Position numbers and translations under genes: made by a program. From the IMG/VR virus record IMGVR_UViG_3300033491_000001: DNA of 64,000 bases. One strand, 5' to 3'. Source of the stretch: a virus. Shown here piece by piece: positions 31,887 through 63,681 of the stretch (the first letter of the stretch is position 1; the number at the start of each line of letters is the position of its first letter). The notes beneath the pieces were generated by a model. It searched no databases. It had not been told where the DNA came from and saw only the letters and a list, made by a program, of their open reading frames with translations.

Positions 31887-33500
31887 TCAAATGTCCGAAT
31901 TCCAATTCATTCCTGCAATGCGGGAGATAATGTAGTCGAGAAACTCTTCTTCGGTCTCGAAAGCACGCTTTGAGCCTTCCTTCTCGTCTGCTGCGAACCC
32001 GCTGTAACTGGACGGGTGAATGTCAACGATTGTCTTCGCAAGCCAAGCCATCTTAAGTGCGTCAAGGAAGTGTGCAGTTTCTCCGATAACCCATGTGTGG
32101 TACATTCGTCCTCTCAACGATGCAAACGCCTTTCTAGCTCTAAGTATGTGCCCAAAGAGTTCCTCTAATCGCCTGCTTCGGAGAAAACGAATCCCGTTGT
32201 TCTGGATTGCTCCGAATAACTGATTGAAGGCTTGGACATTGTTGTAAACTACCCTGCGCTTATCGACTTGAATGTCGCCAGTGACATTGTGCGGTGCACG
32301 GGCTAATGCGAGCCTCGCTTCTGCACCTCTCGCTACAAGTTCGTCACGAAGCATGTAGTTATCGCCCGGTGGAAGTTCATCGATGAGGGTAAGTTTCGGC
32401 TTGAAGATCATGAGTTCGTCCAAAGCGGACTGCCAGTCGGATTGGACTGAGAGGCGAACGACCTGCGGCGGGTCCGTGAGAGCGATGTATGCGATATGGA
32501 AGACTTTGCCGTAATCAACTCCAGCGACTACAGGGACTGACTTTGGCTCTTGCCATTCGTTTTCTGGCAAGACCATTCGAACTAAGTCCGAGAACTGGAT
32601 GCGGATTGAGACGACATATGGAATCCCGATGACGCCCGGATAGAACCTGCTTGCGTCCCGCTTTTGCTCCATCTGTTTGAACCACTCCGCAGACCTCTCG
32701 CTGTCGTAGATCGTCGAGATTATGAACCCGTCTCTGTCCGCTGACGGGTTGAGTGCAACATAGAAGCCAGATTGCCGAACTGCAACTGCATCTGGGTCGT
32801 TAGGATCGAGTGGTCCGCTGCAGATCAAGCACCTAAAAGTCCACCGTTTGCCAGTGTCGTCAAGGGTTATGATGCGCTCATACTCGCGAGGATCAAGCGG
32901 AACTGTCCTGCCACAGGAACGACACTTGACATGCCAGATGAACATCTTCGTTGCAGCGACAACGGACTCTATGCCACTTTCTGTGCCTGATGGGATTGAA
33001 AGCTGCAGAATCATCCCTTCTTCCGACGCGAGCAGTCGGTCTTCGAAGGTGTCTCGTGTCGTTGGGTCGAGGAAAGAGAATTCGTCGAGGATTAGAAAAT
33101 CAGCGGTGATTGAAATTGCCTGAGTGACTTTCTGACCGCCGGTGAAGTGAATTATCCCGTTGAGGATGCCTTTTGTATCGACGCTATCTGGACGAGGTTG
33201 TATGCCCATCGCAGTCAAGATTGGATCAACTTTGCTGAGCACGAATTTCTTGACCACTGGCCACGAGGACAGGACATACATGACATCGAGTTTCCTGTGC
33301 ATGCACTCGTAGATCGCTCTTGCGATTGCGTAGGTAGAAATTCCAAGTTGTGACGCTTTCTGGATTGCGACGAACTTTCTTTGCCGCAGCGGATAGGCAT
33401 AAAGGGCAAGAAGGTGTGGCTTGAACACGAACGGTCTTCCTTTTGGAAGTTTGAAGCTCTTTAGGAACTCAAGGAACTCCAAATCAGGCTGCCATAACAT
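31887..33500 (-). CDS. terL: terminase large subunit (lambda gpA-like)
   Basis: QKASQLGIST Walker A, FLILDE Walker B, CxxC..CxxC insert, AGVDYG and HFLDA nuclease motifs. Confidence 0.9.
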   Translation of the reverse strand: MLWQPDLEFLEFLKSFKLPKGRPFVFKPHLLALYAYPLRQRKFVAIQKASQLGISTYAIARAIYECMHRKLDVMYVLSSWPVVKKFVLSKVDPILTAMGIQPRPDSVDTKGILNGIIHFTGGQKVTQAISITADFLILDEFSFLDPTTRDTFEDRLLASEEGMILQLSIPSGTESGIESVVAATKMFIWHVKCRSCGRTVPLDPREYERIITLDDTGKRWTFRCLICSGPLDPNDPDAVAVRQSGFYVALNPSADRDGFIISTIYDSERSAEWFKQMEQKRDASRFYPGVIGIPYVVSIRIQFSDLVRMVLPENEWQEPKSVPVVAGVDYGKVFHIAYIALTDPPQVVRLSVQSDWQSALDELMIFKPKLTLIDELPPGDNYMLRDELVARGAEARLALARAPHNVTGDIQVDKRRVVYNNVQAFNQLFGAIQNNGIRFLRSRRLEELFGHILRARKAFASLRGRMYHTWVIGETAHFLDALKMAWLAKTIVDIHPSSYSGFAADEKEGSKRAFETEEEFLDYIISRIAGMNWNSDI

Positions 33501-44048: not shown

Positions 44049-45021
44049 ACTGCAATGCACCTCCATTCATTGGATTTATTTGCTTCCTAAATTCGTTTGC
44101 AATCTCATGAACCACGACTAAGTTATGCAATGCGCGACAGTCGAAGTCATCTAACTGCGTTGCATTTTTGCAAAATGGGCAATCATGACCAGAAAACTCC
44201 TTGACTTTATGAAGCAGTTCGTCATTGAGAACAAGATTGTTCATGATTGCTCTCGGCGTTCCAAACCTGCGTTTGACACTAAGCCCAAAGAAGACTTCAT
44301 GAAACGCTGCAGCTTTACGCCAACTTGCGCTGTCGAAACTCTCAACTAATGGTGCTGCAACGAAAATCTTCTCCAAACTCGTAGGGCTTCCTATGCCGAA
44401 AACATGAACCTTCATGCCAAGCGATAACGCTTCCTCGGTCATCGCTCTAAGAACAATCATCGACCTGCTGCTTACATAGTTCACGCTCTCGTCTTTACCA
44501 GCAGTCTCAAAGCTCCCAAACGCAACATACCTGACACCGAGCGAATGCCACCAGCGAACGCCTTTGATAACCTGCACAACAGACCTGCCGTGAACAACAC
44601 CAATCGGCTCACCATGCTTTGGCAGCAACTTCAAAAACCGCTCACCTGCAAGCAAGGTGTCTTTGACCTTTCTGGCAACTTCTTCGTCGGAATCCTTCGT
44701 TTTCGGAACATTGTCAGGCAGGACAAAGTAATCTGCCCAATCGTGTTTACGCCAGACATTCGCCAAACGAACGCACAGTTTCTCGAAACTTTCAATCTGA
44801 CCGCATTGGACTTGATAACCGCCAGAATCGAACATTACAACTTCGATGTCACCTCGTTCGCGTAATTCAGAAACTGCACTGATCAGGTGACGCTTAGCAA
44901 CTACTGGCGTCACGATTACACGCTCAAATGGATTGAAATTCAGGTTCACGCTCCGAACCAGTTCGACATATTTCCTAAGTTCGGCACCATCCATCTTGAT
45001 TGCAGCGAAAAGCTTCCACAT
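43993..45021 (-). CDS. tRNA-guanine transglycosylase / DpdA-like protein
   Basis: MFDSGGYQ, LPDNVP, IGVVHG, HVFGIG, ESFDSASW (both catalytic Asp present); C-terminal HDCPFC...LHN zinc site. Confidence 0.85.
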   Translation of the reverse strand: MWKLFAAIKMDGAELRKYVELVRSVNLNFNPFERVIVTPVVAKRHLISAVSELRERGDIEVVMFDSGGYQVQCGQIESFEKLCVRLANVWRKHDWADYFVLPDNVPKTKDSDEEVARKVKDTLLAGERFLKLLPKHGEPIGVVHGRSVVQVIKGVRWWHSLGVRYVAFGSFETAGKDESVNYVSSRSMIVLRAMTEEALSLGMKVHVFGIGSPTSLEKIFVAAPLVESFDSASWRKAAAFHEVFFGLSVKRRFGTPRAIMNNLVLNDELLHKVKEFSGHDCPFCKNATQLDDFDCRALHNLVVVHEIANEFRKQINPMNGGALQYGDQDRSEDREIVAAAGR

Positions 45022-45043
45022 TGGATTGTTCCTTCACTTGCGT

Positions 45044-45475
45044 TTAGCCTCCTGTTAACCTGCGTTCTTCCATCTCAGCCACGAAATTTTGCCACTTTTC
45101 GTCACCAACACGAATGTATAATCTGCCACCAATTTTGATTGTCGTCAGTTTCCTGCGCGCAACTACATTCGCCCACTGGTAACTCTTACCGAACATCTTC
45201 GCCAGCGCAGAAGTCCTGACATAGCCTCGGTTCTCAAGAAGAAACTTCACAAACTTCGTCCGCAGTCGTCGCTTGTCGTCAGTGATTTTCGGAAATTCAC
45301 CTGCGATTTTTTCCGCAGCATAGCGAATATCTTCGTCAAGCAATAATGCTCTTGCTTGAAATAAATCAATATAATGATTGTGCAAAAGTTTCAAAAGACC
45401 AACTTTATACAAAACACGCAAAACTTTCCAATCGACACCAAATAAATCTGATACTTTCTTGACTGTCAACAGCAT
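45044..45475 (-). CDS. MerR/excisionase-type HTH protein (two HTHs)
   Basis: LLTVKKVSDLFGVDWKVLRVLYKVGLL and YVRTSALAKMFGKSYQWAN. Confidence 0.7.
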   Translation of the reverse strand: MLLTVKKVSDLFGVDWKVLRVLYKVGLLKLLHNHYIDLFQARALLLDEDIRYAAEKIAGEFPKITDDKRRLRTKFVKFLLENRGYVRTSALAKMFGKSYQWANVVARRKLTTIKIGGRLYIRVGDEKWQNFVAEMEERRLTGG

Positions 45476-45504
45476 ATTAAGTTCACCTTACTCTCGTGAA
45501 TGTA

Positions 45505-45533
45505 ATTATATCGCAGGAAAAGTTTCGTGTCAA
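45505..45533 (-). promoter_or_regulatory. consensus sigma70 promoter for HTH-TGT-ParB operon
   Basis: TTGACA-N17-TATAAT, perfect consensus. Confidence 0.85.
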
Positions 45534-45704
45534 GGGTGGCTATATATCTGGCAGAAGTAAACTCGCCTTGAAGTGGTGGCTAAAAGAAAAGTCTGGTAAG
45601 CGTAGGGCGGGCTTACATCGTCGTCATCGTGGCTATCTTAGTTAATGGCTATCGGCAAAGATGCCGATAGCAAAAATCCTAAGGGTAAAGGAGGTTGACG
45701 CAAA

Positions 45705-46277
45705 ATGATGGGACAAATTGAGATTTTGCGGCAAGTGTTAGAGGCAAAAGGAGTCAATCCAGAAGAAGTACTCGCAGAGGTTAGACGCAGGCAGGACATT
45801 GTCGGTCTCTTGACGGAGGTTGGCAAGAGGGTAGCAAAAATTGTCGGTGAATTTGGTCTGGTCAGGATGGATGTAAAGGTAGAGGACGGTAAGGTGACGG
45901 TGTGGTGGGATGACGGGACATTGGCGGAGAAGGTAGAATTGTCATTGACGCACAATGATGATGATGCCAAAGACGGCAAGAGACGCAAAGATGCCAAAGG
46001 ACCAGCAATTGCCGACAAACTTGCCACAGCAGCAAAACGGTACGGTATTGAATTGAAAGAATGGCAGGTCAGGTCAATTGCCTTCCACTTCCCACAAATT
46101 GCCAAATCCCTCATCAAGGAGACCAAAAATGGCATCTTGCAAGATGCCGATTTTCGGGATGCAGTCAAGATGTATGCTGAATGGCATCCCGAAAGGAAGG
46201 GTGAATTGCCACAGGACATTTTGACGCAGAATGATGCCGAGACGCAAAATGCCGAAACGCAAAATGCTACGGCATGA
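45705..46277 (+). CDS. early hypothetical protein
   Basis: AAAGGAGG RBS; 190 aa; followed by terminator. Confidence 0.75.
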   Translation: MMGQIEILRQVLEAKGVNPEEVLAEVRRRQDIVGLLTEVGKRVAKIVGEFGLVRMDVKVEDGKVTVWWDDGTLAEKVELSLTHNDDDAKDGKRRKDAKGPAIADKLATAAKRYGIELKEWQVRSIAFHFPQIAKSLIKETKNGILQDADFRDAVKMYAEWHPERKGELPQDILTQNDAETQNAETQNATA

Positions 46278-46286
46278 TGCCATCAA

Positions 46287-46329
46287 GGGTAGCCGATAGC
46301 CACAATCGGCTATCGGCTACCCAATTTTT
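46287..46329 (+). terminator. intrinsic terminator
   Basis: 15-bp stem GGGTAGCCGATAGCC/GGCTATCGGCTACCC + AATTTTT. Confidence 0.75.
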
Positions 46330-46331
46330 CG

Positions 46332-46353
46332 GCAATCGCACCATAGTGGGATT
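46332..46353 (+). repeat. dispersed CRISPR-repeat-like dyad, copy 1
   Basis: GCAATCGCACCATAGTGGGATT. Confidence 0.85.
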
Positions 46354-46392
46354 AGGACGCAAAAAACTACACCAAAAAGGAGGTAGAGAAGT

Positions 46393-46722
46393 ATGATGAC
46401 GCAGTGGACGCAAAAAACTCAGAAGTGCGAAGTGCTGGACGCACAGTGGAACAAGTACTCACGCTTTTGGGTACTGCAGGTACGCAGTTCCAGTGGGAAA
46501 GAGTGGACGGTGGTGTTCACTCACTGCCGTGGCTATGAAGATGTAGAATGGAGAGTACTGACACGAGACGAAAACGGCTACTGGGAAAGGCACAGCAGAG
46601 GGTTTATCACCATTCCGCACAGAAAAATGGTCAAGATTTACCCACAAACGGTACATGATGCCATCAAATTCTTCCACAACACAATCCTGCCACACATCTT
46701 GACACACTTCCCTAAATTCTAA
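46393..46722 (+). CDS. early hypothetical protein
   Basis: AAGGAGG RBS; 109 aa. Confidence 0.7.
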   Translation: MMTQWTQKTQKCEVLDAQWNKYSRFWVLQVRSSSGKEWTVVFTHCRGYEDVEWRVLTRDENGYWERHSRGFITIPHRKMVKIYPQTVHDAIKFFHNTILPHILTHFPKF

Positions 46723-46739
46723 CACCAATTGCCATCAAG

Positions 46740-46780
46740 GGTAGCCGATAGCCGTTAGGGTTATCGGCTACCTTTTTTTT
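46740..46780 (+). terminator. intrinsic terminator (duplicate of 46287)
   Basis: GGTAGCCGATAGCC/GGTTATCGGCTACC + T8. Confidence 0.8.
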
Positions 46781-46834
46781 GATGCCACAAAAATAGACTA
46801 CACCAAAAATGGCATAGCAAGGTGATGACAAAAA

Positions 46835-47215
46835 TGGCAAGGCAAGGCATCAAGGCAAGGACGCAAGGCAAGGCATCAAGGCAAGGCATCAAGGCATCGG
46901 CAAGGCAAGGACGCAAGGCATCGGCAATTGCCATCGGCATGCCATCGGCATGCCATCATCGGCATCGGCAATTGCCATCGGCAAGGCATCGGTCGGCAAG
47001 GCATCGGTCGGCAAGGCATCATCGGCATCGGTCATCGGCATCAAGGCAAGGCATCATCGGCAAGGCATCGGCATCATCGGCATCGGCATGCCGTCAAGGC
47101 ATCGGCATGCCGTCAAGGCATCGGCATGCCATCATCGGCATGCCATCGGCATCGGCAGGACGCAGCAACAGGACGCAGGACGGCAGGACGAAACAGCAGC
47201 AGAGATGCAGCAAAG
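46835..47215. repeat. low-complexity GGCA/GGCATC/GGACGC tract
   Basis: ~380 bp built from GGCAA, GGCATC, GCCATC, GGACGC units. Confidence 0.9.
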
Positions 47216-47286
47216 TGGCACAAGATTTTAAAGAGTGTTAAGATACGCAGTTGTGAAAATTTTTTGGAATGAGTTTAAATCTACTA

Positions 47287-47309
47287 CAATCGCACCATTG
47301 TGGGATTGA
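47287..47309 (+). repeat. dispersed dyad, copy 2
   Basis: CAATCGCACCATTGTGGGATTGA, overlapped and followed by a perfect 28-bp palindrome 47308-47335. Confidence 0.85.
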
Positions 47310-47364
47310 CATTGTGCAGAATTCTGCACAATGTCTTGACACTACAACACGGAGGTGTGCGACG

Positions 47365-48072
47365 ATGAAGGTCAGTGCAGAAGTGCTGGCGAAAGTGTTG
47401 AAGGCAAAAGGGCTTAGTGACTCGGAAATTGCAGAAGTCCTTGCCACTGCGCAGATGACTGCGAAGACTTCGCAGTCATCACGCAGGAGTAGGGCAAAGT
47501 TGGTGAAGTCAGGAAAACTTGACGAGGCGACTATGGAGCAGTTTAGGCAGCAGTTGCTATTGCGAGAGTGGGAGAGGCGAGTGCGAAGTCATCCGAGGGT
47601 TTTCGGCGTAGATTCAGTGCAAATTTCAAGTAATCAATCGGTAGTTGTGTTCAGGCAGGGTGACGCAGTGATTGAAATTACACTGCGTCATGGGTCTGGA
47701 CGCAGTGCACCGTATAATCGCAGGTTTATCGCACAGAAATTGCCGACTATCAGAGCACAGAAAATTGAAATTGTGCGCATGGTAGTCAGCACTGCGGAGA
47801 AAACGGCAGTGCTGGCAGTAGTTGGTAGTCAACGAGGCGTAGTGTTGCCAGAAAGTGAAAGGCGATGGTTGATGACTGCGTTGAGTGAAACAGTGCAAGT
47901 TCGTTGTGGCAAGTGGCAGGCAAAATTGCCAAAACTGGAGTGGCAGCAGATAGTGAAGTCATGGAGGTGCAAGTATCCAGTGATAGAGCGGCGATGGAGT
48001 GAGTTAGAAGTCAGTGCTGATGGTGAAAGGTGGTTTAGAGTGTCGCAGTTGATTAGCACTAAAGCGCACTAA
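47365..48072 (+). CDS. early hypothetical protein
   Basis: GGAGGTG RBS, ATG 47365. Confidence 0.7.
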   Translation: MKVSAEVLAKVLKAKGLSDSEIAEVLATAQMTAKTSQSSRRSRAKLVKSGKLDEATMEQFRQQLLLREWERRVRSHPRVFGVDSVQISSNQSVVVFRQGDAVIEITLRHGSGRSAPYNRRFIAQKLPTIRAQKIEIVRMVVSTAEKTAVLAVVGSQRGVVLPESERRWLMTALSETVQVRCGKWQAKLPKLEWQQIVKSWRCKYPVIERRWSELEVSADGERWFRVSQLISTKAH

Positions 48073-48097
48073 TGCGAACAATAGTAGTGCTGCAGAG

Positions 48098-48141
48098 ACG
48101 GCACGGCAGGCGACTGCAGTCTGCCGTGCCGTTTCGTTTTT
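48098..48141 (+). terminator. intrinsic terminator
   Basis: ACGGCACGGCAG/CTGCCGTGCCGT + TTCGTTTTT. Confidence 0.65.
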
Positions 48142-48160
48142 GCAGTGCTGGTTGTAGGTG

Positions 48161-48180
48161 GCAATCGCACCACAGTGGGA
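48161..48180 (+). repeat. dispersed dyad, copy 3
   Basis: GCAATCGCACCACAGTGGGA. Confidence 0.85.
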
Positions 48181-48246
48181 TGGAGTGCGCACAGGCATGT
48201 GATAGGTGCGCACTCCTGAAAATTTTGTGCATGGAGGTGTAGGAAA

Positions 48247-48501
48247 ATGCAACGCACAGTGAATTTTGGCGATTTTGCAGTTGAAGTCAAGCAGACAGAA
48301 CTTGGGCATTACACCATGACACTTCGGTGCAGGTGTTGCTGGGACAGTCGGCAGTGGGCAGCGATTTACTTGTGTGAGGAGAAGTCGCAGTTGCGTGAAG
48401 GTTTTAGAGACCTGCTGCGAGACTTCAATGAGCACTGCAGGCGCAGGCATCTTAGAGCAGCGACTGAACTGCGACAGCGATTTAGTCGGCTGCTGCACTA
48501 A
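48247..48501 (+). CDS. early hypothetical protein (Cys/His-containing)
   Basis: GGAGGTG RBS; 84 aa. Confidence 0.65.
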   Translation: MQRTVNFGDFAVEVKQTELGHYTMTLRCRCCWDSRQWAAIYLCEEKSQLREGFRDLLRDFNEHCRRRHLRAATELRQRFSRLLH

Positions 48502-48552
48502 CGAGTGGAAGCCTGCGCCAGTGGTGTTCAATCCGCACTGGCGCAGGCGACT

Positions 48553-48576
48553 GCAATCGCACCATTGTGGGATTGA
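48553..48576 (+). repeat. dispersed dyad, copy 4
   Basis: GCAATCGCACCATTGTGGGATTGA. Confidence 0.85.
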
Positions 48577-48641
48577 GGAGTGCGCACAGGCATGTGATAG
48601 GTGCGCACTCCTGAAATTTTTTGCATGGAGGTGTAGTGGAG

Positions 48642-48941
48642 ATGTTGCGATTAGAAGGAGTGCTGCAGGACGCAGACGAAGTGATGGAAGCGTTGGCAGA
48701 TGGTGCAGTTCTGAAGGCGATGCATCCCTATTACAGTGAAGTGCACTGGGCAAAGCGAGTTGGTGATGCAGTGGTTGAGAGAGTCGTTGACTCGGCGACT
48801 GGTGAGATTTTGCCATCGGCATCCTTCCGTCCACACTTCTACGCACTACTTGTAGACAATGCGATTGAGACTGGATGGCTTTTCTGCGTAGTTGGTGAAG
48901 ATGTTGATGTCACACGACTGTTCGGAGGTGAGCAGGAGTGA
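48642..48941 (+). CDS. early acidic hypothetical protein
   Basis: GGAGGTG RBS, ATG 48642. Confidence 0.65.
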   Translation: MLRLEGVLQDADEVMEALADGAVLKAMHPYYSEVHWAKRVGDAVVERVVDSATGEILPSASFRPHFYALLVDNAIETGWLFCVVGEDVDVTRLFGGEQE

Positions 48942-49159
48942 AATTTGCAGAACTGGTTGCTGAGGCACTTGGGTGGTTAATTATTGCAGTGCTGCGCACA
49001 GAGTTTGGTGCGGAGATTAGTGACGAAGAAGCGAAGGCAGAAGTGCGGAAGTTGAGAGAGTCTGTGCGGTTGGCAGTAGAGCAAGGCAGGTATGACCAGA
49101 TAGGTCTGCCTGCGGAACTATGCGAGGCTGAAATTGGAGAAGTCATTGCACTGAGTTAG
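48938..49159 (+). CDS. early hypothetical protein
   Basis: GGAGGTG RBS, coupled GTGA overlap. Confidence 0.6.
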   Translation: MKFAELVAEALGWLIIAVLRTEFGAEISDEEAKAEVRKLRESVRLAVEQGRYDQIGLPAELCEAEIGEVIALS

Positions 49160-49620
49160 TGGCTGCGGTAGATGCCTGCGGGCGGGCGACTGGCTGTGCG
49201 ACTGGCTGGGCGACTGCCAGTGGTTGCCTGCCTGCGGGCGACTGCCTGCGGGCGACTGCCTGCGGGCGACTGCCTGCGGGCGATTGCCTGTGCCTGCGAG
49301 TGGTCGCAGGCGAGTGGGCGCAGGCGAGTGTGGGCGGGCGGAACAGACCCACTCGGTAGGAATAGAGTGCGGCGTTCGGAAAATTTTTTGAGTGCCCTTT
49401 GGCTGCCAGTGCTGCGCAGCAATCGCACCATTGTGGGATTGTTGCCTGCGGGCGAGTTCTTGCGGGCGAGTTCCTGCGGGCTGCCTGCGGCTGCGCCTGC
49501 TGCGGGCTGCCTGCGACGGCTGCCTGCGCCACTCGCCTGCGGGCGGGCGAGTGAGGGCGAGTGCGGGCGAGAACAGACCGCACTCGCAGCAGTAGAGTGC
49601 GGGCGTTGGGAAAATTTTTT
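49160..49620. repeat. low-complexity GCCTGCGGGCGA tract
   Basis: CTGCCTGCGGGCGA x4 in tandem at 49228-49283 plus many degenerate copies on both sides of dyad copy 5. Confidence 0.9.
49419..49441 (+). repeat. dispersed dyad, copy 5
   Basis: GCAATCGCACCATTGTGGGATTG. Confidence 0.85.
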
Positions 49621-49638
49621 TCTACGGAGGTGAGCAGT

Positions 49639-49992
49639 ATGGATGTTAGGAAATTCGTCAGTGCGGTGTTGGCAGATGCGAAAATTCACAGGAGTCGTTG
49701 CGAGTTCAAGCAGTTCGAAGAAGACTATGCGCATGTAGTCATTCATGGCGATGTCAGCAGTGCTGAGTTCACAGTTTTGCGGCGTCATGATGGACTGGTA
49801 TGGGTGCAGGTTTGGTACGCAGGGTTGAAGTTAGTAGTGTATGCACCGCCAGAGTTGCTTTGGCAAGAGCCAGTCTACGAGGACATCGTAGACGCAGTTT
49901 GGAGGGCGAAAGACTGGGAGTCGGAGGTGATTGATTGGGCAGTGCTGGTTGACGAACTGGACGATGCGACTGCTGAATTGCTGCAGTCTTGA
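49639..49992 (+). CDS. early acidic hypothetical protein
   Basis: GGAGGTG RBS, ATG 49639. Confidence 0.65.
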   Translation: MDVRKFVSAVLADAKIHRSRCEFKQFEEDYAHVVIHGDVSSAEFTVLRRHDGLVWVQVWYAGLKLVVYAPPELLWQEPVYEDIVDAVWRAKDWESEVIDWAVLVDELDDATAELLQS

Positions 49993-50023
49993 GAATTCAG
50001 TTGGCAGGGAAGGAGGGATTAGC

Positions 50024-50230
50024 ATGAAGCGAGTTCTACGCTGCGAGTTTCCGACTCTCGGAAAGCCGAAGTTTAGGAAAAAGGCTCGTTGGTGTGTTGC
50101 AGGATACTTTGATGGGCGACTGCAGTTCAGCATTCGTTTCTGTTCGCAGCACTTGGAACAGTGGATGGAAAGGATGGAGAAGGCAGAACTGCCAGACGAG
50201 TGGAAGTTTGAGATCCAGGAACTGGCGTAA
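50024..50230 (+). CDS. early hypothetical protein
   Basis: AGGAGG RBS; 68 aa. Confidence 0.55.
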   Translation: MKRVLRCEFPTLGKPKFRKKARWCVAGYFDGRLQFSIRFCSQHLEQWMERMEKAELPDEWKFEIQELA

Positions 50231-50270
50231 CCTACCAGTGGCGGCGAGTTCACCACTCGCCGCCACTTCT

Positions 50271-50290
50271 GCAATCGCACCATTGTGGGA
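50271..50290 (+). repeat. dispersed dyad, copy 6
   Basis: GCAATCGCACCATTGTGGGA between hairpins 50237-50267 and 50292-50322. Confidence 0.85.
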
Positions 50291-50346
50291 TGCAGGCAGG
50301 CGGAGAAATTTCGCCTGCCTGCGAATTTTTTTAGGAGGTGAGTGCT

Positions 50347-50619
50347 ATGGAGCGTGTAGTGGTTCACTACCATGTTGATGTATTTGACACTGCGAGCAAG
50401 CCGTTGTGGAGCACTCGTGCGTTGCCGAAGAGTGCAGCGGAGCGAGAGTTTAGGCGACTCATCGATGAGTACAGGAAACAGGTTGGGAAGTTCGTCGTCA
50501 GAAAAGCCACTGATAGAGACCGAGAAAGAGGCTTTGTTGGTGCAATCAGGTTAGCAATTAACCACGAACTGGTGGTCGCACTGACGAAATGCGACTGTTC
50601 AGAAGGTTATCGGCATTAG
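50347..50619 (+). CDS. hypothetical protein
   Basis: AGGAGGTG RBS. Confidence 0.65.
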   Translation: MERVVVHYHVDVFDTASKPLWSTRALPKSAAEREFRRLIDEYRKQVGKFVVRKATDRDRERGFVGAIRLAINHELVVALTKCDCSEGYRH

Positions 50620-50671
50620 TGGCAGGGACGGCGAGACAGGGAGTGGAGGCGAAATTTTTGAGTGGAGGTGA

Positions 50672-51217
50672 ATGCGTATGAAGTTTCGCAAAGTGAAAGT
50701 CGTTCTGCATGATGAGCGAAGTGGGAAGGTGTTAGAACTGCATGCGACACCATTCAGTCTTGATGGTGGCTGCATTGAGCCACGCAGTGGTGTGTTCCTT
50801 GACGCAATTGTGCATTATGCAGGCATGAAGTTCAAGCAGTCGGCGACTATCACGAAGCCTTACAGTTTCGACGGACCTCAGGATGCCGAAGCAACTGCAA
50901 AATTAGTCATCGCTGACTTTCTGCGTTGTCTGGCGTCGTTAGAGAGGTCGATGCGAGTTCCACCAGAGTGGGATCACGATGCAGAGTGGCGCATTTATGT
51001 GCAGGCGAAAGCGTCCCATCTCTATACTGCTGCACAGGAGAAGCGCTTTCCACTGGATGTCTTAGAAGTTGCTGCAGAATTTGGGCAATTTTGCGGACTG
51101 TGCCGCTTTGTCTACTTGTATTTCTGCTCCACGAATGCGTATTATGCTGATAGACTGCGAACTGCCATCGAGCAGTTCGAGAATGATGGTAGTCGGTTGT
51201 TCACTGCGGCTTTGTGA
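50672..51217 (+). CDS. hypothetical protein
   Basis: GGAGGTG RBS; 181 aa. Confidence 0.65.
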   Translation: MRMKFRKVKVVLHDERSGKVLELHATPFSLDGGCIEPRSGVFLDAIVHYAGMKFKQSATITKPYSFDGPQDAEATAKLVIADFLRCLASLERSMRVPPEWDHDAEWRIYVQAKASHLYTAAQEKRFPLDVLEVAAEFGQFCGLCRFVYLYFCSTNAYYADRLRTAIEQFENDGSRLFTAAL

Positions 51218-51478
51218 TTACTTCTTCGCCTTCTGGAACAGGTAGAAAAGCCAGAACCTTTCGCCGCCGACAGTAATTTCCATTGCACGCTTTGCTTTTG
51301 GTGCAGTTGGTGGCGGAGTAGGTTCTGAGCGCACCCAGATGTCTACCTTCTGACCAACTATAGGCATATCAAACTGGACATCTGGGCGTGGGTCGGCTGC
51401 GTACTGACGCAACTTCTTGAGAGTCTGCTGAAGTGCCCACATTTTCACCAAGTCAAGCACCAATGGCAGTGGCAGCAT
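51218..51478 (-). CDS. lone minus-strand hypothetical protein
   Basis: GAGGTG RBS; abuts the upstream gene's stop; divergent from the RHH gene. Confidence 0.55.
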   Translation of the reverse strand: MLPLPLVLDLVKMWALQQTLKKLRQYAADPRPDVQFDMPIVGQKVDIWVRSEPTPPPTAPKAKRAMEITVGGERFWLFYLFQKAKK

Positions 51479-51536
51479 GACTAATCACCTCGCAAGTAAT
51501 TTATTCGTGTGTAAAATTTTAGCACGGAGGTGACCT

Positions 51537-62640: not shown

Positions 62641-63681
62641 ATGGAGGACAAGAGCAAACTGTTGGTGGCTTTGCGCGACAGTGTCGCTAATCGAATTCAA
62701 TCCTTGTTCGCTTCAGTCGCGCAATCAGACCAGCCACGCCTGCGGCTTTCAGCCATCGGTTTGTGTCCGCGAGCGACAGTCTTGTCTGTGAGGACTGGAG
62801 TAACAGCGGACTTAACCGAGGCTGCGGGTATCCTTGCTGCAGGGCATTTGTTCGAGAATTTCATCGCTGAAGCGTTTGAAGGCGAGGAGATCTACCCGCA
62901 GTTTGAAGTTGAACTCGCAGGCGTGAAAGGTCACATTGACTTTTACTTCCCGCAACGAAAGTTCCTGATTGAGTGCAAAACTATTGCAGCCGCAAGGTGT
63001 TCTCCTGAATTTCTTCCAGTCGAGCATCATGTCGTCCAAGTTCACGCTTACCTCTCAGCGCTGTTTGAAATGACATCGGAAGAGCACTATGCCGCTCTCG
63101 TGTATTTCCCGAGGGAAAACCCGAGGCTCTTTCAAGTCTTCACCTTCGCCTATGACCCAAGTTGGCACTCCGAACTTGTCCTTCGCATTGAACTTCTCAA
63201 ACACGCCATAGAAACTGGAGAACTTCCTCCAATTCCTGCTAACTATGACGCAACGAAGTTTCCGTGCAGGTGGTTCTCGCGGATTTCTCGCATGGTCGTT
63301 CAGTGTCCATTCTACGAGCAATGCTGGCAGACGAAGAAGCAGGAGCAAGAAGAGCCTAAAGTGTCAGAAGAGGGAAATGAGGAAAATCTTCCAGTCTATG
63401 ACATGCCTGACGAGATTGAGGAAATCGTTGCCTTGTTGCACTCCATCCGGACGCAAAAGAAGTCTCTTGAAGAGCAAGAGAAGGCAGCACGCCAACAACT
63501 TCTTGAGAAGGTTGGCAAAAAGCGAGGGCGATGGGTCGGAAAAGAGTTCGGATTGCAGGTTCATGACGAACAACGCCGAACTCTCGACACCAAAGCCCTT
63601 GCTAAGGTCGTGAACCTCGATGAATACCGCAAAGTCACTGTCGCCACGGTCGTCGACGTTTGGCGACGGTTGAAGATTTGA
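62641..63681 (+). CDS. Cas4-like PD-(D/E)xK exonuclease with Fe-S cysteines
   Basis: LSAIGLCPR, GHLFE, GHIDF, IECKT, QVHAY, CRW...CPFYEQC; C-terminal coiled extension. Confidence 0.85.
   Translation: MEDKSKLLVALRDSVANRIQSLFASVAQSDQPRLRLSAIGLCPRATVLSVRTGVTADLTEAAGILAAGHLFENFIAEAFEGEEIYPQFEVELAGVKGHIDFYFPQRKFLIECKTIAAARCSPEFLPVEHHVVQVHAYLSALFEMTSEEHYAALVYFPRENPRLFQVFTFAYDPSWHSELVLRIELLKHAIETGELPPIPANYDATKFPCRWFSRISRMVVQCPFYEQCWQTKKQEQEEPKVSEEGNEENLPVYDMPDEIEEIVALLHSIRTQKKSLEEQEKAARQQLLEKVGKKRGRWVGKEFGLQVHDEQRRTLDTKALAKVVNLDEYRKVTVATVVDVWRRLKI

Follow-up and report, generated by a model that had tools for sequence, protein, structure and literature searches.

Solitary CRISPR-repeat units ahead of early genes of a hot-spring phage as probable mimics of Cas6 substrates

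The early region of a phage genome, represented by a 64,000-nucleotide stretch of DNA (IMG/VR virus record IMGVR_UViG_3300033491_000001; hereafter the window), carries six solitary repeat units (SRUs) that reproduce most of a repeat found in CRISPR arrays of hot-spring metagenome-assembled genomes (MAGs). An SRU is here taken to be a phage copy of the host type I-B/III repeat upstream of the Cas6 cut, together with the next two nucleotides. The units are probably Cas6-substrate mimics of the kind known as SRUs and RNA anti-CRISPRs (Racrs), that is, sites that the host Cas6 would bind and cut with benefit to the phage. The evidence lies in the identity of the units with the host repeat, the link to the hosts, the targeting of the phage by the same CRISPR system, and the orientation, conservation and flanking architecture of the units. 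The part that Cas6 requires for binding and cutting is kept, while the part that Cascade or a type III complex would require to load the downstream RNA is lost, with a hairpin in its place; therefore, the units are most likely Cas6 substrates.

The six units and the repeat they copy

A pattern search for GCAATCGCACCA-YW-GTGGGA(T) gives exactly six matches in the window, all on the + strand (Table 1). The pattern GCAATCGCACCA-YW-GTGGGA is expected 0.01 times by chance, and none of 100 shuffled sequences reached six. The pattern is exact in five of the six copies; the copy at 47286, which an earlier note on this DNA had placed at 47287, opens with A in place of G. The window holds no further copies even when three mismatches are allowed. 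All six units are intergenic, with a stop codon on one side and a Shine-Dalgarno (SD) sequence and start codon on the other, and they occupy 5' leaders 40-200 nt ahead of the start codons. The distances from unit to unit are 954, 875, 392, 866 and 852 bp. Thus, the six units of the earlier note, their intergenic, sense-strand placement and their spacing (given there as ~390-950 bp) are all recovered, and so is the imperfect dyad described in it: predicted RNA folding yields CAAUC.CAC[NNNN]GUG.GAUUG, a stem-loop with a G.G mismatch. A CRISPR array or mini-array consists of at least two repeats with spacers between them and a period of ~60-80 bp; here, the nearest units are 392 bp apart and genes lie between them.

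The core of the units belongs to a genuine CRISPR repeat of 30 nt, of which it forms the body. When one genome per prokaryotic species was scanned for the exact pattern, it was found at no fewer than 117 loci. Among the matches listed, the majority form arrays with a period of 65-67 bp, which lie in MAGs from hot springs under the labels Armatimonadota (here Fervidibacter-like) or Fervidibacterota; a few are labelled Caldatribacterium, Anaerolineae or Chloroflexota. The array repeat consists of a variable 4-nt start (GTCG, GTAG or GCAG) and CAATCGCACCA-NN-GTGGGATTGAAAC/G; with a GCAG or GTCG start it is written GCAG/GTCG-CAATCGCACCANNGTGGGATTGAAAC/G, and its end is ATTGAAAC/G. The phage units correspond to repeat positions 4-24. 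They are identical to the array repeat over 21-26 of its 30 nt (70-87% coverage); the longest match is that of SRU5, in which a GCAG prefix and a TTG suffix bring the contiguous match to 26 of 30 positions. Array repeat and phage units are predicted to fold alike, into one small stem-loop. The search of the core against host CRISPR arrays is thus positive and supports the CRISPR-repeat reading of the earlier note. The GTTTCAATC 5' end guessed there occurs in one Caldatribacterium repeat variant. An Rfam search of 45000-51500 returned no family match at E <= 1, CRISPR-DR families included, save two chance miRNA matches.

It is at the 3' end that the units part from the array repeat. The array repeat ends in an AUUGAAAC tag, and type I-B Cas6b cuts a single repeat so that an AUUGAAAC tag is left on CRISPR RNAs (crRNAs) (PMC3479195). 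All six window units are short of the final 4 nt of the 8-nt crRNA handle, and handle positions 5-8 differ from AAAC/AAAG both in these units and in five units found in two other phages. Scanning metagenomes for handle-less units gave at least 92 solitary ones, in which the handle is incomplete by design of the search. The trailer-end repeat of several host arrays (loci L219, L231, L237 and L241) is itself handle-less, ends in ...GGGATTGAGGG and resembles the 3' flank of SRU4-type phage units. Such array-end repeats may hint at the origin of the phage units.

The CRISPR-Cas systems of the hosts

The three candidate host genomes have one Cas6 each. One candidate host genome contains a full type I-B operon, all three contain Cmr2 or Csm1, and one array with the repeat lies 2.8 kb from cmr2. 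Because there is one Cas6 per genome beside type I-B and type III genes, it is reasoned that a single Cas6 probably serves both kinds of effector. The same gene content agrees with the type I-B/III assignment that the earlier note had given to the repeat. A Cas6 encoded by the phage itself was also considered and rejected, as a tblastn search of the window with host Cas6 found no match. No cas genes lie near the units.

Arrays with the mimicked repeat contain spacers against the phage. Metagenome arrays whose repeat is of the GCAG/CATT variant yielded 1341 unique spacers, and 12 of these match the window at >=80%. The best match, at 36 of 37 positions, lies in the terminase gene (Table 1); the next best falls on 49612-49647, the leader and start region after SRU5, at 33 of 36 positions. 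CCT or CCA (CCW) stands directly 5' on the spacer-sense strand at 7 of the 12 best protospacers. We take CCW to be a type I-B-like protospacer-adjacent motif (PAM), and these flanks suggest the PAM of the host type I-B adaptation machinery. At nine of these 12 the crRNA would pair with the mRNA, a proportion that is not significant. Spacers of the MAG arrays in GTDB (994 unique) match the window at 29 of 36 positions at best. One metagenome array with the repeat and spacers adjoins Csx14/CARF and Cmr1 genes. The window DNA is present in at least six hot-spring metagenomes, and arrays with the CATT-loop repeat variant appear in contigs of four RNA libraries from the same kind of hot-spring community, where they are apparently transcribed.

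Orientation, conservation and the hairpin clamp

Among the metagenome units listed, 61 lie in 34 contigs that are 70-88% identical to the window at 44.7-56.3 kb. Conservation in these relatives was counted at 32 sites that had not been used to find the contig (non-ascertained). Among the relatives listed, 27 of the 32 sites are exact and 5 have one change, a core divergence of 0.9%; the flanks diverge by 10-30%. The loop is unconstrained at its positions 3-4, and the units are no longer conserved beyond GGGAT, which reaches 2 nt past the canonical Cas6 cut. The units are also strongly oriented. An SD-led open reading frame (ORF) begins within 250 nt downstream of 58 of 61 and 22 of 31 units listed, as against 6 of 61 and 8 of 31 in a reverse-orientation control. 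The sense orientation with a downstream SD-led ORF therefore points to a role at the RNA level.

Most of the units are clamped between hairpins. The four upstream and four downstream hairpins of the earlier note are all present in the window (Table 1), as are the A/T tracts ahead of a GGAGGTG ribosome-binding site that it had described for three copies (48219, 48614 and 50324). The units listed have 87 distinct downstream contexts, and in 67 of them pairing starts 0-3 nt past the predicted cut. The 50 nt that follow fold with a mean energy of -20.0 kcal/mol, compared with -10.6 for shuffles and -8.4 after full repeats on chromosomes. At the level of sequence families, 16 of the 20 strong hairpins on the downstream side begin 0-3 nt past the cut, and 14 of the 23 on the upstream side end 0-2 nt ahead of the repeat. 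A looser spacing upstream than downstream had been expected and would have spoken for a processing role; it was not borne out, as both are tight by this count. The hairpin sequences are unrelated between modules, and the order of hairpin, A/T tract, SD and start is kept. In several module families the hairpin is not followed by a T run.

The same unit and architecture recur five times, again handle-less, in two other complete or near-complete phage contigs, and these two phages have no protein similarity to the window in the parts compared. The downstream stem of SRU6 is invariant in 16 relatives. More generally, no base pair of the unit or the downstream hairpin varies in the relatives, and covariation is uninformative.

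Table 1. Positions of the six units, their flanking structures and a protospacer in the window (SD, Shine-Dalgarno sequence)
Feature	Position	Strand	Details
SRU1	46332..46352	+	loop CATA; predicted Cas6 cut 46350/46351; no downstream hairpin; A-rich leader, SD 46377, start 46393
SRU2	47286..47306	+	first base A; loop CATT; predicted cut 47304/47305
SRU3	48161..48181	+	loop CACA; predicted cut 48179/48180
SRU4	48553..48573	+	loop CATT; predicted cut 48571/48572
SRU5	49419..49439	+	loop CATT; predicted cut 49437/49438; in a 480-nt non-coding stretch
SRU6	50271..50291	+	loop CATT; predicted cut 50289/50290
Upstream terminator-like hairpin and T run abutting SRU1	46287..46329 (hairpin 46287-46322)	+	
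Upstream terminator-like hairpin and T run before SRU3	48095..48145 (hairpin 48095-48135)	+	
Upstream hairpin without T run, 4 nt ahead of SRU4	48511..48548	+	
Upstream hairpin without T run, 3 nt ahead of SRU6	50237..50267	+	
14-bp hairpin downstream of SRU2	47308..47335	+	begins 3-4 nt past predicted cut; then SD 47351, start 47365
Hairpin (stem GGAGTGCGCAC) and AAAATTTT tract downstream of SRU3	48182..48226 (hairpin 48182-48216)	+	begins 2 nt past predicted cut; SD 48233, start 48247
Hairpin and A/T tract downstream of SRU4, near-identical to that of SRU3	48577..48622 (hairpin 48577-48611)	+	SD 48627, start 48642
GC-rich repetitive structured leader after SRU5	49440..49621	+	ends in AAAATTTTTTT; then SD 49626, start 49639
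13-bp hairpin and AATTTTTTT downstream of SRU6	50292..50332 (hairpin 50292-50323)	+	begins 2 nt past predicted cut; SD 50334, start 50347
Protospacer in terminase gene	32256..32292	+	36/37 match to spacer of metagenome array with the mimicked repeat

A model of unit action

Based on this anatomy, the units would act in the following manner. They would be transcribed within the early rightward mRNAs, which presupposes passage through two terminator-like hairpins. The single host Cas6 would bind the small stem-loop and cut at GUGGG/AU. Abundant early transcripts with up to six sites each would then compete with pre-crRNA for the only Cas6, a Racr-like anti-CRISPR effect, and this sole Cas6 would feed both the type I-B and the type III effectors. 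Cleavage would release the downstream cistron with a 5'-hydroxyl (5'-OH) end 2-4 nt from a strong hairpin, and the upstream RNA would end in hairpins. With hairpins at both new ends, the cut pieces should be stable. The downstream RNA should also escape loading into Cascade or Csm/Cmr, because the last 4 nt of the handle are missing. It is from the conserved stem-loop and the 2 nt past the canonical cut that we infer processing by Cas6.

Several observations weigh against the units being Cas6 mimics that work in this way. Two units follow terminator-like hairpins, and a consensus scan found no sigma-70-like promoter directly upstream of any unit; thus, transcription through the units is an assumption. 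Contigs from four hot-spring RNA libraries cover the unit region at 90-99% identity, with strand and ends unreadable and DNA carry-over possible. Multiple turnover is possible for a Cas6 with several effector complexes to supply, as in the case of Cas6-1 of S. solfataricus (PMC4041471), and a stoichiometric sink would be weak if the host Cas6 turned over likewise. Effector complexes that are already formed are untouched by a Cas6 sink. A Cas7 filament of the RacrIF1 type would be impeded by the hairpins that abut the units upstream. The coverage of the repeat by the units lies below the >=90% that SRUFinder demands of a 'full match' (PMC10651486). Finally, the downstream stems and the SD are as invariant as the unit, without compensatory changes, and concerted evolution (gene conversion) or a recent spread of modules may inflate the apparent constraint.

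Alternative explanations

The earlier note had offered, as one of two models, that host Cas6 releases early mRNAs at the units and is titrated by them. This model fits the anatomy, and what stays divided is which of its two effects is selected. Roughly apportioned, a Cas6 sink is a serious contender that stops short of an even chance, maturation of mRNA is a lesser one, and the rest falls to both together or to something else. If maturation is selected, Cas6 would be the phage's own processing enzyme for maturing and stabilising early mRNA, and any anti-CRISPR effect would be incidental; we regard this as possible though doubtful. The stability of the downstream hairpins and their fixed distance from the cut are what such a role would call for, as are the tight upstream spacing, the shared order of elements around unrelated hairpins and the individual conservation of each unit copy, although the hairpin sandwich could equally present a decoy, and in a compact genome any intergenic element lies near an SD. 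The downstream hairpin overwrites the handle, and therefore handle loss would be explained. Cas6-made 5'-OH ends are reported to be more stable than 5'-triphosphate (5'-PPP) ends (PMC10651486), a Cas6 with several effectors can turn over (PMC4041471), and one host MAG has full repeats directly ahead of its own genes. Against this, a literature search found no precedent of a natural phage using Cas6 so, the expression of phage genes would hinge on a dispensable host gene, and only 6 of the ~30 rightward genes carry a unit. The evidence partly favours cleavage itself as the point of the units. It is tentatively suggested that the handle-less repeat between two hairpins is a portable intercistronic module for processing or stabilising RNA that travels with early-gene cassettes between thermophilic phages, and full repeats may be put to a related use before cellular genes in at least one host lineage.

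The units also mark the junctions of cassettes that are swapped among relatives. For example, two relatives (L181 and L201) join the upstream side of SRU3 to the downstream side of SRU4, and the cassette 48247-48501 is missing; another (L251) joins the upstream side of SRU4 to the downstream side of SRU6; and in three (L189, L194 and L198) the upstream side of SRU5 runs into an SRU4-type hairpin. Joints of a similar kind are seen in contigs of the RNA libraries. The sequences are joined exactly at the units, and the window encodes a RecE/Cas4-like exonuclease at 62641-63681, as might be expected if the units were DNA-level recombination sites, short homology boxes for the exchange of early-gene cassettes like the stem-loops of T4-type phages known as PeSLs or integron attC. 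Such a role is nonetheless improbable: it does not account for the identity with the host repeat, for the strictness of the sense orientation, for a loop that is free beside a fixed stem or for the boundary of conservation at the Cas6 cut, and any conserved box of 20-60 nt yields junctions of this sort as a by-product.

The other model of the earlier note held that the units give rise to crRNA mimics, 40-55-nt Cas6 products that load into Cascade and jam it. A hairpin with a U-rich tail does follow SRU3, SRU4 and SRU6. The model is nevertheless disfavoured and appears very unlikely, since the handle is degenerate in every copy (in the window, the two other phages and, by design, the metagenome units) and the would-be guide region is locked in a stable hairpin. 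In the module families without a T run, such a small RNA would have no defined end. The handle-containing product of RacrIF1 alone is not inhibitory (PMC10651486).

As a last reading, the unit might serve a phage RNA polymerase or sigma factor as promoter, or the regulator encoded at 45044-45475 as operator; the earlier note had likewise allowed for an operator or a phage-specific promoter. This reading has next to nothing in its favour beyond a contiguous 21-nt conserved box whose GGGA end superficially resembles T7-type promoters and the lack of a sigma-70-like promoter for the rightward genes, and it is rejected for the unit itself, as the box is the host CRISPR repeat, no sigma-70-like site stands ahead of any unit, the large ORFs tested have no RNA polymerase domain (Pfam and PHROGs; not every ORF scanned), the asymmetry of the dyad (G.G) is conserved, and the unit also occurs in phages without protein similarity in the parts compared.

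Comparison with known systems

SRUs and Racrs of viruses are already established (Faure et al. 2019, as cited in PMC10651486; Camara-Wilpert et al. 2023, PMC10651486), and the basic idea is not new. Four of the five features that define an SRU are found in the window: a match to the repeat, a solitary position (no other repeat or partial repeat within ~100 bp; here, 392-954 bp), an intergenic location in viral DNA without cas genes nearby, and a host with a matching system. The fifth, 90% coverage, is not reached. The window units keep the stem-loop and not the full handle; RacrIF1 needs its stem-loop and can do without the 8-nt handle, and RacrIC1 is transcribed together with AcrIC5, a protein-coding gene (PMC10651486). 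In contrast to SRUs and Racrs described so far, there are six copies within 4 kb, one per early gene, and the handle is truncated in every copy. Strong hairpins stand on both sides and argue against a Cas7 filament of the RacrIF1 kind, and the putative target is a type I-B/III Cas6 of thermophilic Armatimonadota. A Racr is a small non-coding RNA (ncRNA) with its own promoter just upstream; no sigma-70-like promoter adjoins the units. Neither the unit core nor two IMG/VR sample numbers occur in the supplementary text of PMC10651486, a weak negative as that text is possibly incomplete.

Viral crlRNAs and Cracr arrays (Liu et al., bioRxiv 10.1101/2024.10.29.618823) are likewise multiplexed CRISPR-derived phage elements that exploit host Cas proteins. 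They differ in being repeat-spacer units that retain the handle, carry a guide matching cas or toxin promoters and include a second (pseudo)repeat, whereas the window units have no second repeat within 390 nt, no intact handle and a hairpin at the position of the guide. The units are therefore neither mini-arrays nor crlRNAs. Another comparison is offered by ncRNA60 of Saccharolobus solfataricus, which is cut by Cas6-3 (PMC4041471). It is a non-CRISPR transcript with a repeat-like sequence, and Cas6 processing is seen for ncRNA60 and predicted for the units. Unlike the units, it is a single-copy host RNA with a handle-like 5' end retained, and the Csm complex takes it up.

Two further comparisons may be drawn, the first of which is a resemblance in working and not in membership. 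The early genes of phage T7 are separated by RNase III sites, and Csy4/Cas6f insulators are a synthetic counterpart. In both, as predicted for the window, the site of a host endonuclease lies between cistrons and hairpins stand at the new ends; the difference from the T7 sites is that the enzyme would be Cas6, a nuclease of the immune system, and that cleavage is predicted. The PeSLs combine promoters and stem-loops at cassette boundaries. They share with the units a repeated stem-loop module that stands before early genes and coincides with the junctions at which cassettes are shuffled, but a PeSL is a promoter plus stem-loop and is not CRISPR-derived.

What is new to us is the form: handle-less units clamped between hairpins, once per early cistron in six cistrons, at cassette junctions and in thermophilic phages. 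Up to six such units per genome, common to phages without detectable relationship, raise the possibility that Cas6 is used for the maturation of phage mRNA and not only titrated. The units also provide an arms-race picture without cultivation, in which a phage mimics the repeat of a CRISPR system whose arrays target that phage. Furthermore, they amount to a natural mutational scan, in which the repeat stays fixed up to the Cas6 cut and 2 nt beyond it, apart from a loop that is free to vary, and the remaining handle is dispensable; the scan predicts what a thermophilic type I-B/III Cas6 needs in its substrate. Because the units cover no more than 70-87% of the repeat, the handle-less family may escape catalogues that demand 90% coverage. 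A thermostable Cas6 with a short hairpin-clamped site could serve as an RNA-processing part.

The phage and further observations

The window is phage DNA, with genes for a tape measure protein, tail, terminase, ligase-methylase and primase (Pfam, PHROGs). The nine proteins beside the units and the regulator have no match in PHROGs, nor have the six of them compared with Pfam or the two compared with the Atlas, and they give no indication for or against an acr or aca neighbourhood. No DNA relative of the window was found among GenBank phages, and two proteins of the unit region led to no relatives in IMG/VR. The consensus scan found a perfect TTGACA-17-TATAAT promoter at 45505-45533 on the - strand, facing the gene at 45044-45475, and none for the rightward early genes.

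Full repeats also occur outside ordinary arrays. IMG/VR contig L001 (4780 nt) is a phage fragment with genes for a large terminase and a portal that ends in a leader-like sequence and at least three full GCAG/CATT repeats with spacers, a phage-borne mini-array; it comes from the same sample series as phage contig G005. The Fervidibacterota MAG ERB_15_1 (G002; L134-L153) has 40 matches to the repeat core, only 8 of them inside an array. About 25 perfect full-length 30-nt repeats, solitary or paired, are spread over many of its contigs, and further loci (L018, L026, L035, L114 and L116) are grouped with this observation. A same-strand ORF begins at most 90 nt downstream in 19 of 26 cases, and the repeat often lies 0-30 nt ahead of its SD-led start. 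Scattered full repeats are almost absent from Ca. Fervidibacter sinensis (G001). The scattered repeats of ERB_15_1 could reflect Cas6- or Cascade-dependent regulation of host genes, or be scars of repeat spreading. At L153:431-560 (= L005:526-660) two full repeats lie 35 nt apart, and the 'spacer' between them copies, at 33 of 35 positions, the sequence just past the second repeat, where a RapZ-like gene has its SD and start. This arrangement is either a tandem duplication of repeat and leader or a self-derived spacer.

Some minor features of the unit region may be added. The modules of SRU3 (48161-48226) and SRU4 (48553-48622), each made up of unit, hairpin and A/T tract, are near-identical duplicates, and relatives exist without the 392-bp cassette between them. 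The depth of RNA-library contigs is highest at 49306-49572, a value confounded by transcribed CRISPR arrays that share the repeat. Low-complexity non-coding tracts at 46822-47200, 49160-49400 and 49440-49600 adjoin SRU2 and both flanks of SRU5. One of them is made of GGCATC/GGCAAG words and the others of 14-nt GCCTGCGGGCGA-type repeats, and each terminates in a similar AAAATTTTTT motif.

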